A stretch of DNA of 64,000 bases from sequence record MK962758. The stretch is one strand, 5' to 3'. The DNA comes from Shigella phage JK55. Position numbers and translations under genes: made by a program. How positions within the stretch are numbered: the stretch's first letter is position 1; each line of letters opens with the position of its first letter. Shown piece after piece: positions 1,086-1,110 of the stretch. A model generated the notes under the pieces. It made no database searches, was not told the DNA's origin, and saw nothing but the letters and a program-made list of their open reading frames with translations.

Positions 1086-1110
1086 GTTGACAAAGTACTT
1101 GACAAGGTGT
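1086..1110 (+). promoter_or_regulatory. conserved 25-nt element gttgacaaagtacttgacaaggtgt with tandem TTGACAA half-sites
   Basis: 24/25 identical copy at 41971..41995; 12-mer cttgacaaggtg also at 57241..57252; all upstream of rightward genes. Confidence 0.55.

Follow-up and report, generated by a model that had tools for sequence, protein, structure and literature searches.

Tandem TTGACA boxes in two divergent intergenic regions of a Felix O1-like phage: a probable composite element of host sigma-70 promoters

Among the phages used for Salmonella typing and biocontrol, Felix O1 is a classic. Its genome paper describes the temporal control of transcription as unknown, reports neither a phage RNA polymerase nor polymerase-modifying genes, and places ORFs 41, 42, 96 and 97 in one RT-PCR timing class (PMC3185647). 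The same paper predicts a promoter, P41, reading TTGACA(N15)TATAGG, and found no homologous sequence or promoter in the divergent region between genes 96 and 97 (Whichard et al. 2010, PMC3185647). GenBank record MZ726791 carries a promoter feature that corresponds to positions 1099-1125 of the DNA analysed here, and a TTG direct-repeat motif of the lambda CII and P22 C1 type is mentioned in PMC4837284. In the literature that was searched, no transcriptome, transcription-start, footprint or reporter study was found for any Felix O1-like phage, and searching with the motif string gave irrelevant matches alone.

The window, by which we mean the whole 64,000-nt stretch of Shigella phage JK55 that was analysed (MK962758), is of the Felixounavirus type and is 97% identical to E. 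coli phage VpaE1. It contains two plus-strand copies of a 25-mer, GTTGACAAAGTACTTGACAAGGTGT at 1086-1110 and GTTGACAATGTACTTGACAAGGTGT at 41971-41995, identical at 24 of 25 positions. This repeat, pointed out in the original prediction, is real: no further match with three or fewer mismatches was found elsewhere in the window, and 100 dinucleotide shuffles yielded 0 matches. Both copies also lie, as had been claimed, in divergent intergenic regions at the starts of rightward operons. Copy 1 is in the region 988-1236, flanked by a leftward gene on one side and by the DUF5681 gene, from 1237, on the other; copy 2 is in the region 41942-42168, between the leftward DNA polymerase gene and a gene at 42169; in Felix O1 numbering these are regions 40/41 and 96/97. 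Contrary to the Felix O1 paper, the 96-97 region contains a sequence (copy 2) that matches the one at 40/41. The likeness of the two copies exceeds 25 nt, with an A-tract upstream and, 24-25 nt downstream, a ACTTAAAAGGTT block followed by ACAGATA. We read the 25-mer as the -35 and spacer part of two homologous host sigma-70 promoters, of which the second TTGACA box would also be read by sigma-70 region 4, and we give this composite reading a probability of roughly 60%.

Anatomy and conservation of the two tandem-box sites

The features of the two sites, each with two TTGACA hexamers (boxes 1 and 2), are as follows.

1033-1061, minus strand: leftward partner promoter of copy 1 (TTGACT, 17 nt, TACCAT), predicted by promoter scan; nearly unchanged across genera.
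1077-1086, plus strand: A-tract AAAAAAGTTG of copy 1, read directly, adjoining box 1 and resembling the proximal subsite of an UP element.
1087-1092, plus strand: box 1 of copy 1, TTGACA, the putative -35, 17 nt before TAnnnT; invariant in 17 of 17 unique orthologous sequences.
1093-1098, plus strand: 6-nt spacer AAGTAC between the boxes of copy 1, fixed in length and free in sequence.
1099-1104, plus strand: box 2 of copy 1, TTGACA, at about -23 to -18, within the spacer of the box 1 promoter; invariant in orthologues, with both flanks variable.
1110-1115, plus strand: putative -10 of copy 1, TAGGCT, 17 nt after box 1, with a predicted start near 1121-1123.
1136-1226, plus strand: imperfect inverted repeat (RNA hairpin) in the leader of copy 1, long and conserved, extending to the ribosome-binding site of the DUF5681 gene.
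41962-41971, plus strand: A-tract AAAAAGCAAG of copy 2, read directly, upstream of box 1 and invariant across genera.
41972-41977, plus strand: box 1 of copy 2, TTGACA, the putative -35; invariant in 24 of 24 unique orthologous sequences.
41984-41989, plus strand: box 2 of copy 2, TTGACA, 12 nt after box 1; invariant.
41993-42001, plus strand: putative extended -10 of copy 2, TGT-TAATCT, with the hexamer at 41996-42001, 18 nt after box 1, and a predicted start near 42007-42008.
42007-42168, plus strand: conserved leader of copy 2, about 160 nt at 24% G+C, carrying long inverted repeats and, at 42019-42030, the ACTTAAAAGGTT block.

Both boxes match the -35 consensus TTGACA at six of six positions in both copies. 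When hexamers with T-12, A-11 and T-7 were sought at 16-18 nt, box 1 had one in each copy (at 17 nt in copy 1 and 18 nt in copy 2), with these key bases invariant across genera, and box 2 had only a weak candidate at copy 1 (AATACT, at 15 nt) and none at copy 2 or at the third tandem site described below. The absence of a good -10, as originally reported, holds by consensus scoring: TAGGCT and TAATCT each match TATAAT at three of six positions, short of four, and a consensus promoter scan calls neither. It does not hold for the bases T-12, A-11 and T-7, which both hexamers keep at the distances given above. An extended -10 TG is in register at copy 2, at the third site (TGG-TAACTT) and at the single-box site copy 3 (TGA-TAGGCT, below), and at copy 1 the TG at -14/-13 is one base off that register. 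Estrem and colleagues reportedly gave the UP consensus in 1999 as AAAAAARNR, and by sequence AAAAAAGTTG and AAAAAGCAAG fit the A-rich proximal subsite expected between about -46 and -38.

Orthologous sites were compared across the genera Felixounavirus, Mooglevirus and Suspvirus. At copy 1, no column varies in box 1 (0/6), in box 2 (0/6) or at -10 positions 1, 2 and 6 (0/3), whereas every column varies in the spacer (6/6) and at -10 positions 3-5 (3/3); the A-tract of this copy is variable in 6 of 12 columns. The corresponding counts at copy 2 are 0/6, 0/6 and 0/3 against 4/6 in the spacer and 1/3 at -10 positions 3-5. Spacers read AAGTAC, AAGGAC, TTCCTC, AGCCTC, AGGGGA or AATGAC at copy 1 and ATGTAC, ATGCAC, ATGCGC, ATACAC, AATCAC, AATAAC, ATTCAC or AAGCAC at copy 2, and the offset from box to box is 12 in all orthologues of both. 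The -10 hexamer is TAGGCT, TAGCCT, TAAGTT or TAGTGT at copy 1, and TAATCT or TAGTCT, with TGT or TGG ahead, at copy 2. Copies 1 and 2 are very probably sigma-70 promoters that use box 1; box 2 is under selection as a component of the promoter and is probably functional. The original reading of the element as a transcription signal heading the two rightward transcription units is supported, as is the suggestion that it goes beyond a simple -35/-10 pair: box 2 is invariant despite its position within a spacer.

In the mechanism that we propose, an UP-like A-tract at about -45 to -37 would precede box 1, which would serve as the -35 and be followed by a 17-18 nt spacer and a minimal TAnnnT -10 (TAGGCT in copy 1, TGT-TAATCT in copy 2). 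Transcription would start about 7 nt past the -10 and run into a long, structured, AT-rich leader, with the copy 1 promoter driving the DUF5681 gene, gene 42 and tRNAs, and the copy 2 promoter driving replication and nucleotide-metabolism genes. Box 2 would be an auxiliary or alternative docking site for sigma-70 region 4 and not for a phage-specific protein; such docking could boost polymerase capture or set the occupancy of these minimal -10 promoters.

The leader of copy 1, with its ACTTAAAAGGTT block at 1135-1146, folds with an MFE of -28.4 kcal/mol (z = -2.6) and has 33 consensus pairs, one of which shows a compensatory change (C-G to U-A); the genera differ there by only about 5 substitutions. 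The leader of copy 2 folds with an MFE of -31.2 kcal/mol (z = -2.0), with compensatory changes in two pairs. Each leader contains a dyad outside the 25-mer, CTTAAAAGcCTTTTAAG at 1198-1214 and AGCTTTTaAAAAGCT at 42087-42101. No Rfam covariance model matched either leader, and only tRNAs reached the gathering score in the window.

Three other readings of the letters around the boxes were tried and rejected. The reverse complement TTGTCA could act as a leftward -35 (at copy 1, TTGTCA, 18 nt, TGC-AATAGT), but some genera lack the A that this requires after box 1, copy 2 offers no -10 to match, and the leftward promoter that is conserved is the one at 1061-1033. A T4-type late promoter, TATAAATA at 1116-1123, is not conserved, the relatives having TCTAAATA and TAATAAAT there. 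A hairpin around box 2 and the -10 at copy 1 (AAGTA/TACTT) shows no covariation when the spacer changes. Comparable stems do occur in copy 3, the third site and the marine phage family described below. On the opposite strand of the copy 2 A-tract, TTGCTT is a possible candidate for the -35 of a leftward DNA polymerase promoter.

Putative single-box promoters, and the tandem geometry in other phages

The 12-mer CTTGACAAGGTG occurs exactly four times in the window, at 1098, 41983 and 57241 on the plus strand and at 38682-38693 on the minus strand. Its recurrence at 57241 had been noted correctly, but the count of three had overlooked the minus-strand copy. The two occurrences outside the 25-mers belong to the following features.

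57242-57289, plus strand: single-box promoter at 12-mer copy 3, with TTGACA (57242-57247), 18 nt and TGA-TAGGCT (57263-57271), read directly; predicted start near 57278.
38664-38693, minus strand: 12-mer copy 4, with TTGACA (38692-38687), 17 nt and TACCTT (38669-38664), upstream of a 69-aa gene starting at 38637; predicted start of transcription near 38657.

Copy 3 had been taken for a third, partial copy of the tandem element; it is instead a single-box promoter nested in the terminator hairpin of nrdD, whose arms are AGGTGATGT (57248-57256) and ACATCACCT (57273-57281), followed by a T-run. This arrangement is kept in three genera, with a double compensatory change in the stem (GA to AG with TC to CT) and an invariant loop that bears the -10. 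Copy 4 is conserved within Felixounavirus, with or without an upstream homing-endonuclease gene, and is absent from Mooglevirus-type genomes. More generally, TTGACAA shares first place among intergenic 7-mers, where it is enriched 9.5-fold (9 copies on the sense strand, compared with 13 in the 57 kb that are coding), and about a dozen intergenic sites of the window fit the pattern A-tract, TTGACA, 16-18 nt, TAnnnT. The A-tract context AAAAAGTTG precedes other TTGACA promoters of the window, as it does box 1. In more distant relatives, the orthologous places hold sigma-70 promoters of the ordinary kind, with a single box: CTTGACAAG, 17 nt, TGT-TAAAGT in Yersinia phage P778, and TTGACA, 16 nt, TAGAAT in Erwinia phage phiEa104. 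The box 1 context, the substitution pattern of the -10, these single-box relatives and the Felix O1 paper (PMC3185647) all argue against the suggestion that the element is a phage-specific promoter class in place of a sigma-70 promoter.

A third tandem site was found outside the window, at 12492/12505 of VpaE1, with an offset of 13. It has TGG-TAACTT or TAATGT 17 nt after box 1, the same conservation pattern and the same ACTTAAAAG leader block. The arrangement AAAAAGTTG, TTGACA, N6, TTGACA, N5, TAnnnT also occurs in a family of marine T4-like phages, and at least one further contig family has the tandem geometry, there ahead of an early gene. Since blastn of the marine element against cultured phages gave no match and the gp55 of the family is merely 55-61% identical to cyanophage gp55, we regard the marine family as uncultured. 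The first IMG/VR scan required both hexamers, which makes hexamer invariance there uninformative, and the scan was repeated anchored on box 1 alone. In the resulting sample of the marine family, 57 of 65 unique sequences have TTGACA as box 2, and its homologous variants are TTGCCT, TTGCCG, TTGCCA and TTGACT, so that TTG is retained and positions 4-6 vary. This is the tolerance profile of sigma-70 -35 elements. The marine element points antisense to each of its two neighbouring genes, an odd orientation if it were the promoter of an ordinary mRNA.

What may read the second box

The most economical reader of box 2 is the host polymerase, because the arrangement is common to unrelated phages of unrelated hosts. 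We favour sigma region 4 as this reader, with a phage regulator as the main rival, and we hold the specific proposal that region 4 reads box 2 at a little under even odds. We are aware of no established way in which sigma region 4 would use a hexamer at -23 to -18 and, to our knowledge, no promoter element with the sequence of box 2 has been described at its position. A bolder reading, which we offer tentatively and hold to be less likely than not, is that these 'tandem -35' promoters (A-tract, TTGACA, N6, TTGACA, N4-6, TAnnnT) form a distinct, previously undescribed class found in diverse lytic phages, Felix O1-like and uncultured marine T4-like, in which the second hexamer (-23 to -18) has a mechanism of its own. 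That mechanism might involve sigma region 4, by hand-over or by a second docking; alternatively, the hexamer might be the site of a sigma-4-like phage protein timing early transcription, or might serve to make primer or antisense RNA.

Somewhat unlikely, in our judgement, is that the tandem boxes are an operator, at which a phage DNA-binding protein (the XRE/HTH_3 protein encoded at 34672-35001 or an unrecognised one) would bind TTGACA(A) direct repeats that overlap the -35 and spacer, switching three promoters off or on during infection. Helix-turn-helix proteins that act on TTG-type direct repeats at the -35 have precedents in lambda CII and P22 C1. An operator would fit the invariance of box 2 at a place where sigma-70 promoters have no known sequence requirement, and the presence of tandem boxes at only three of about a dozen TTGACA promoters is what would be expected of a regulated subset. 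The XRE gene lies within the leftward operon that starts at copy 2, and its homologues are present in Felixounavirus, Mooglevirus and Suspvirus-type phages and undetected by tblastn in the single-box Erwinia and Yersinia relatives; nevertheless, this co-occurrence is a single phylogenetic contrast, and tblastn could miss distant homologues. The phyletic distribution thus matches the original suggestion of the XRE-family protein as the binder, but the nature of the protein speaks against it. It is a typical HTH_3 protein, probably starting at the methionine of MNEVF..., its closest solved relatives (HipB, HigA, PezA and C-proteins) are of the inverted-repeat kind, and members of the HTH_3 family usually bind inverted repeats as dimers, whereas the two boxes repeat directly, with a period of 12 bp. 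The dyad expected of an XRE/Cro-type operator is likewise absent from the 25-mer, the leader dyads lying outside it. Furthermore, both units are exactly the sigma-70 -35 consensus, and the identical geometry in unrelated marine T4-like phages points to a common host reader.

We consider it improbable that the element comprises two overlapping productive sigma-70 promoters, as in gal P1/P2, each box having its own -10 and the starts lying 10-12 nt apart to give two leader isoforms. Copy 1 would allow this: AATACT lies 15 nt past its box 2 (AACACT, at 16 nt, in other genera), and this is the promoter of the MZ726791 annotation and the P41 of the Felix O1 paper. However, a 15-nt spacer is suboptimal, the hexamers 16-18 nt past box 2 of copy 2 are GAAGTG, AAGTGG and AGTGGG, those of the third site are G-rich, and the marine family has TGTACC or TGTTCC 17 nt past box 2. 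A second complete promoter with box 2 as its -35 was rejected as a general explanation: neither copy 2 nor the third site offers a hexamer with A-11 and T-7 at 15-18 nt past the box. Lacking a usable -10 at these two sites, box 2 is not simply a second productive promoter.

Very improbable is a role as transcription-primed replication origins, comparable to T4 oriF/oriG and the primary origin of T7, with a strong promoter and a long AT-rich untranslated region yielding a primer RNA and the boxes being iteron-like. The leaders of 120-190 nt are untranslated, highly conserved and AT-rich, with 24-28% G+C where the window as a whole has 39%; copy 2 is flanked by the DNA polymerase gene and replication genes; cumulative GC skew reaches local minima near 1 kb and 42 kb; and the marine version, being antisense to its neighbours, would make a non-coding RNA. 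The skew merely mirrors gene orientation, though, and is uninformative. Each leader runs into a ribosome-binding site and a gene, folding like the 5' structure of an mRNA, and in place of an iteron array (three or more direct repeats with an initiator) there are two repeats per site, beside the AT-rich leaders, with no initiator protein found. Finally, it is hardly credible that the two intergenic regions share a non-functional repeat, left over from duplication or gene conversion: the further blocks common to both regions would fit common ancestry, but neutral DNA would not hold two hexamers and the critical -10 bases while the intervening bases turn over in three genera, nor recur with the same geometry in unrelated phages.

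Comparison with known promoter systems

For the Felix O1 family, the analysis puts a probable promoter in the 96-97 region, a twin of that at 40/41, and delimits a subclass of three promoters in which the -35 is doubled and the leaders are long and conserved. If box 2 has a mechanism of its own, it would be a new element of bacterial promoter architecture, apparently reused by distant phages, easily tested with E. coli polymerase and of possible use in the design of strong or switchable promoters. If box 2 is redundant with box 1, the finding shrinks to a corrected promoter annotation in a well-known phage family.

Several described systems resemble parts of the element. In gal P1/P2 and T7 phi1.1A/1.1B (the primary origin), two polymerase recognition elements likewise lie in a short region before a long leader; unlike these, the second -35 here has no -10 partner at two of three sites, so the element is not just a pair of complete promoters. 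At lambda PR', where a sigma-dependent paused complex serves Q loading, a -35-like TTGACT lies near a -10-type hexamer, and sigma region 4 tolerates non-canonical spacing in such special complexes. The likeness is a -35-type hexamer unusually close to a -10-type hexamer. In lambda, however, TTGACT is downstream of the promoter -10, in the transcribed region and 1 bp from the -10-like pause element, whereas box 2 lies 4-6 bp upstream of its own -10, and no Q-like gene was identified.

The lambda CII and P22 C1 promoters (TTGC-N6-TTGC) share two TTG direct repeats in the -35 region and a poor -10, and the logic here could be regulatory as it is there. They differ in that TTGACA recurs at 12 bp and TTGC at 10 bp, that the repeats here are at -35 and -20 and do not flank the -35, and that each unit is a full -35 consensus; what was found is TTGACA-N6-TTGACA, and the one recognisable regulator matches HTH_3 and not Phage_CII. 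A T4-type middle promoter, which works by MotA/AsiA sigma appropriation, would have a TGCTT-type MotA box at -30 in place of the -35, with motA and asiA genes; here there is no MotA box, a -35 consensus is present, and the Felix O1 paper lists no polymerase-modifying genes.

Another likeness in layout is to E. coli sigma-70 promoters with an UP element and extended -10, among them the strong early promoters T7 A1 and T5 P25/N25 of lytic coliphages: TTGACA lies 17-18 nt from TAnnnT, an A-rich tract precedes the -35, TGn stands before the -10 at copy 2, copy 3 and the third site, and the promoters are found at early operon starts and use unmodified host polymerase, the latter being a prediction here. 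Unlike T7 A1 and T5 P25/N25, the phage element has a minimal -10 (three of six positions) and a second perfect -35 hexamer within the spacer, at a fixed offset of 12 nt and as conserved as the first. In P41 and the MZ726791 feature, the copy 1 locus itself has already been read as a host-type promoter. Those annotations take box 2 as the -35, with a 15-nt spacer, and leave the tandem arrangement unmentioned, whereas the conservation of the sequence favours box 1 with TAnnnT at 17-18 nt.

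Tandem TTGACA elements and their predicted promoter family

The two 25-nt copies said to recur at 1086-1110 (GTTGACAAAGTACTTGACAAGGTGT, copy 1) and 41971-41995 (GTTGACAATGTACTTGACAAGGTGT, copy 2) were confirmed by direct reading, both on the plus strand and differing by a single base. No further match at up to three mismatches was found in the window, nor any match in 100 dinucleotide-preserving shuffles. Exact copies of the 12-mer CTTGACAAGGTG lie at 1098, 41983 and 57241 as predicted, and a fourth occurrence on the minus strand (38682-38693) had been overlooked. Alignment of both intergenic regions takes the likeness past 25 nt, with an A-tract upstream of the element and a second common block, ACTTAAAAGGTT, 24-25 nt downstream of it, followed by ACAGATA. 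Because the role of the AGGTG that follows the box changes from site to site (terminator stem at 57241, source of the TG of an extended -10 at copy 2), we infer that the 12-mer identity reflects common descent and local constraints, not a single 12-bp recognition site. The sequence TTGACATTGACA (two boxes, offset 6) occurs twice within coding sequence, at 44722-44733 and 58469-58480, where it is probably a consequence of the encoded peptide ...DIDS... rather than a signal.

Every TTGACA in the window was listed. About a dozen are intergenic, every one in gene orientation, with a common layout of an A-tract (typically AAAAAGTTG), TTGACA, 16-18 nt and TAnnnT. Among intergenic 7-mers, TTGACAA shares first place for enrichment (9 in ~4 kb of intergenic sense strand versus 13 in 57 kb of coding sequence). 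The common layout fits the first TTGACA (box 1) of each 25-mer, not the second (box 2). The original prediction saw no good -10 at either copy; the candidates indeed match TATAAT at only 3/6 positions, which is why they were missed both there and in a consensus promoter scan, but a TAnnnT does stand 17-18 nt after box 1.

Intergenic TTGACA sites and candidate promoter features in the window
1087, 1621, 3124, 3215, 4620, 41972, 46795, 57242, 57660, 63409; plus strand; intergenic TTGACA sites
38692, 36127, 35634; minus strand; intergenic TTGACA sites
1110-1115; plus strand; copy 1 -10 candidate TAGGCT, 17 nt after box 1
41996-42001; plus strand; copy 2 -10 candidate TAATCT, 18 nt after box 1, with TGT before it (extended -10)
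57242; plus strand; copy 3, single-box promoter TTGACA, 18 nt, TGA-TAGGCT
38692; minus strand; copy 4, single-box promoter TTGACA, 17 nt, TACCTT, upstream of a 69-aa gene

Over its first 12 kb the window shares 97% identity with Escherichia phage vB_EcoM-VpaE1 and with ~200 further Felix O1-like phages (Ounavirinae, Felixounavirus). Copy 1 lies in a 249-nt region between a leftward gene and a DUF5681 gene (1237), the Felix O1 gene 40/41 boundary, and copy 2 in the 227 nt that separate the leftward DNA polymerase gene from a gene at 42169, the 96/97 boundary. Downstream of copy 1 are 25 tRNA genes in clusters (3271-8104), so that its unit begins with tRNAs and small genes and not directly with packaging genes; strong single-box promoters at 3124, 3215 and 4620 are interspersed among the clusters. 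The DNA polymerase is a single 909-aa ORF (39212-41941, minus strand). In VpaE1 (NC_027337 61512-65021) the annotation has two pieces, of 737 aa and 184 aa, with an endonuclease VII gene and a hypothetical gene between them, which suggests that a mobile insertion splits the gene there.

Conservation of the two boxes and of the leaders

Orthologous regions from Felixounavirus, Mooglevirus, Suspvirus and Sf13-like phages were taken from IMG/VR via flanking proteins (83-100% identical). Two TTGACA with starts exactly 12 nt apart are present in every covering unique sequence (copy 1, n=17; copy 2, n=24), while the 6 nt between them vary freely, as AAGTAC, AAGGAC, TTCCTC, AGCCTC, AGGGGA or AATGAC at copy 1 and ATGTAC, ATGCAC, ATGCGC, ATACAC, AATCAC, AATAAC, ATTCAC or AAGCAC at copy 2. 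The -10 candidates change at middle positions only (TAGGCT, TAGCCT, TAAGTT and TAGTGT at copy 1; TAATCT and TAGTCT at copy 2).

Variable alignment columns (copy 1; copy 2)
Box 1: 0/6; 0/6
Inter-box spacer: 6/6; 4/6
Box 2: 0/6; 0/6
-10 positions 1, 2 and 6: 0/3; 0/3
-10 positions 3-5: 3/3; 1/3

Judged from these alignments, the pattern is what a functional -35 and a functional -10 leave behind, and box 2, at about -23 to -18 in the predicted spacer, is as strongly constrained as the -35. More distant relatives carry ordinary single-box promoters at both orthologous places: CTTGACAAG, 17 nt, TGT-TAAAGT in Yersinia phage P778, and TTGACA, 16 nt, TAGAAT and TTGACT, 18 nt, TGG-TATGAT in Erwinia phage phiEa104. 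This suggests that the location is an old promoter position and the doubled box an elaboration found in the Felix/Moogle/Susp clade.

Beyond the window, VpaE1 has a third tandem site, TTTTAAAAAAGTG-TTGACA-atgcccc-TTGACA-TTGG-TAACTT, whose boxes start 13 nt apart. Both of its boxes stay unchanged in the 16 genomes compared, the 7-nt spacer varies, and the -10, with TGG in front, is TAACTT or TAATGT. A CCCC...GGGG stem encloses its box 2 and -10 (12492-12530 of the VpaE1 sequence, L002).

The site at 57241 had been taken for a third partial copy of the element; the 12-mer is exact there, but the site is a single-box promoter. This copy 3 sits within the nrdD terminator hairpin AGGTGATGT/ACATCACCT, followed by a T-run (57242-57289); other genera have a double compensatory change in the stem, and the 16-nt loop with the -10 is invariant. 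Since the left arm of the stem would be missing from it, a copy 3 transcript would not terminate itself. In some relatives a different endonuclease gene is inserted right after nrdD, displacing this promoter. Promoters nested in terminator-like hairpins were seen at 57242-57289, at 3116-3152, where the TTGACA at 3124 is inside AAAGGGTATTGACAATGTGTTTGATACCCTTT, a hairpin that the Felix O1 paper calls t42/t43, and at VpaE1 12492-12530. Copy 4 is kept within Felixounavirus with or without a homing-endonuclease gene upstream. Here copy 4 is separated from the DNA polymerase gene by an AP2-domain homing-endonuclease-like gene (38689-39240, minus strand) whose TGA stop falls within the TTGACA box; the gene is missing from some close relatives, which retain the promoter.

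The leaders of all three tandem promoters (1116-1236 and 42002-42168 in the window and 12515-12681 in VpaE1; 120-190 nt, 24-28% G+C) are more conserved across genera than the promoter cores. They share ACTTAAAAG(G/A)TT, CAGATA(T)C and several CTTAnnAG octamers, the third site's 190-nt leader having the ACTTAAAAG and CAGATATC blocks common to the other two, and their long hairpins reach the ribosome-binding site. Those of copies 1 and 2 have z = -2.6 and z = -2.0, with one and two compensatory pairs across genera, respectively, and no Rfam family matched either leader. The P778 leader has a similar series, CTTAACAG / CTTAATAG / CTTAGCAG. These leaders could be RNA control elements, and their inverted repeats could equally act as DNA dyad operators; we record them as a feature associated with tandem promoters.

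The same design in marine phages

An IMG/VR scan with AAAAAG-N2-4-TTGACA-N6-7-TTGACA, a query that forced both hexamers and left out the -10, returned the Felix-type sites and ~70 matches in other, widespread AT-rich marine contigs. The marine element reads ...ACCATAAAAAGTTG-TTGACA-aagggc-TTGACA-tgtgt-TAAAGT..., and in nearly all a -10 (TATAGT, TAAAGT, TACAGT or TACATT) stands 17 nt after box 1. These are T4-like contigs in which gp55, a UvsW-like helicase and gp47 lie nearby; the gp55 shares only 55-61% identity with its counterpart in cultured cyanophages, and this tandem -35 family is uncultured (contigs L183-L329, e.g. L185 9926-9975 and L183 8735-8776). The highly conserved promoter is always in a short (~75-nt) gap between a 123-aa gene and gp55, antisense to both, and may drive antisense or primer RNA. 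A short G/C inverted repeat (GGGGC...GCCCC) brackets its box 2, -10 and start region. In another contig family the design is sense-oriented and precedes a small, cysteine-rich early gene by 32-49 nt, standing among ordinary single-box promoters.

Because the first scan had forced both hexamers, it was repeated with the A-tract and box 1 alone as anchor. Box 2 was TTGACA in 57 of 65 unique sequences; the homologous variants (TTGCCT, TTGCCG, TTGCCA and TTGACT) retain TTG and vary at positions 4-6, and the remaining three look unrelated. Sigma-70 -35 elements behave likewise, keeping TTG and varying at positions 4-6.

Reading of the second box

How the sites are built and conserved, the constant phasing between the boxes and the recurrence in other phages are direct observations; as far as sequence comparison can tell, the 25-nt element is real and functional. 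It had been proposed as a regulator binding site or a phage-specific promoter class. It should be recast as a pair (genome-wide, a trio) of predicted sigma-70 promoters with a duplicated -35, although the conserved box 2 does go beyond a plain promoter. Host sigma-70 holoenzyme would use the A-tract, box 1 and the minimal -10, with predicted starts near 1121-1123 and 42007-42008 and transcripts with long structured leaders. Our preferred reader of box 2 is sigma region 4, which would use it as an additional or alternative docking site (probability about 0.45), because the hexamer is exactly the -35 consensus and because unrelated phages of unrelated hosts share the design, their common reader being host polymerase. 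We know of no mechanism that places sigma region 4 at -23 to -18.

The main alternative is that box 2, or the tandem boxes together, form an operator bound by a phage protein. The sole transcription regulator that could be recognised, an HTH_3/XRE protein (34672-35001, minus strand; true start probably the MNEVF methionine), has homologues only in tandem-box phages (Felixounavirus, Mooglevirus and Suspvirus-type), and none were found in the Erwinia or Yersinia relatives, matching the tandem-box distribution; yet dyads are the usual targets of this family, and the co-occurrence represents a single evolutionary contrast. A second productive promoter driven by box 2 fits copy 1 only, and a primer-RNA or origin role is conceivable, with AT-richness as the only evidence in its favour.

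In Felix O1, four transcription units diverge from the 40/41 and 96/97 regions; at 40/41 a promoter of host type, "P41", TTGACA(N15)TATAGG, was predicted, and a homologous sequence was reported absent from the 96-97 region (PMC3185647). The same paper states that temporal control is unknown, describes the phage as without RNA polymerase or polymerase modifiers, and places ORFs 41, 42, 96 and 97 in one RT-PCR class with a signal maximum at 25 min (PMC3185647). We found no start-site or transcriptome studies of Felix O1-like phages in the literature; a promoter feature covers window 1099-1125 in GenBank record MZ726791. The element was already known in part, a promoter having been predicted at one of its two sites; new here are the conserved second box and the recurrence of the design elsewhere.
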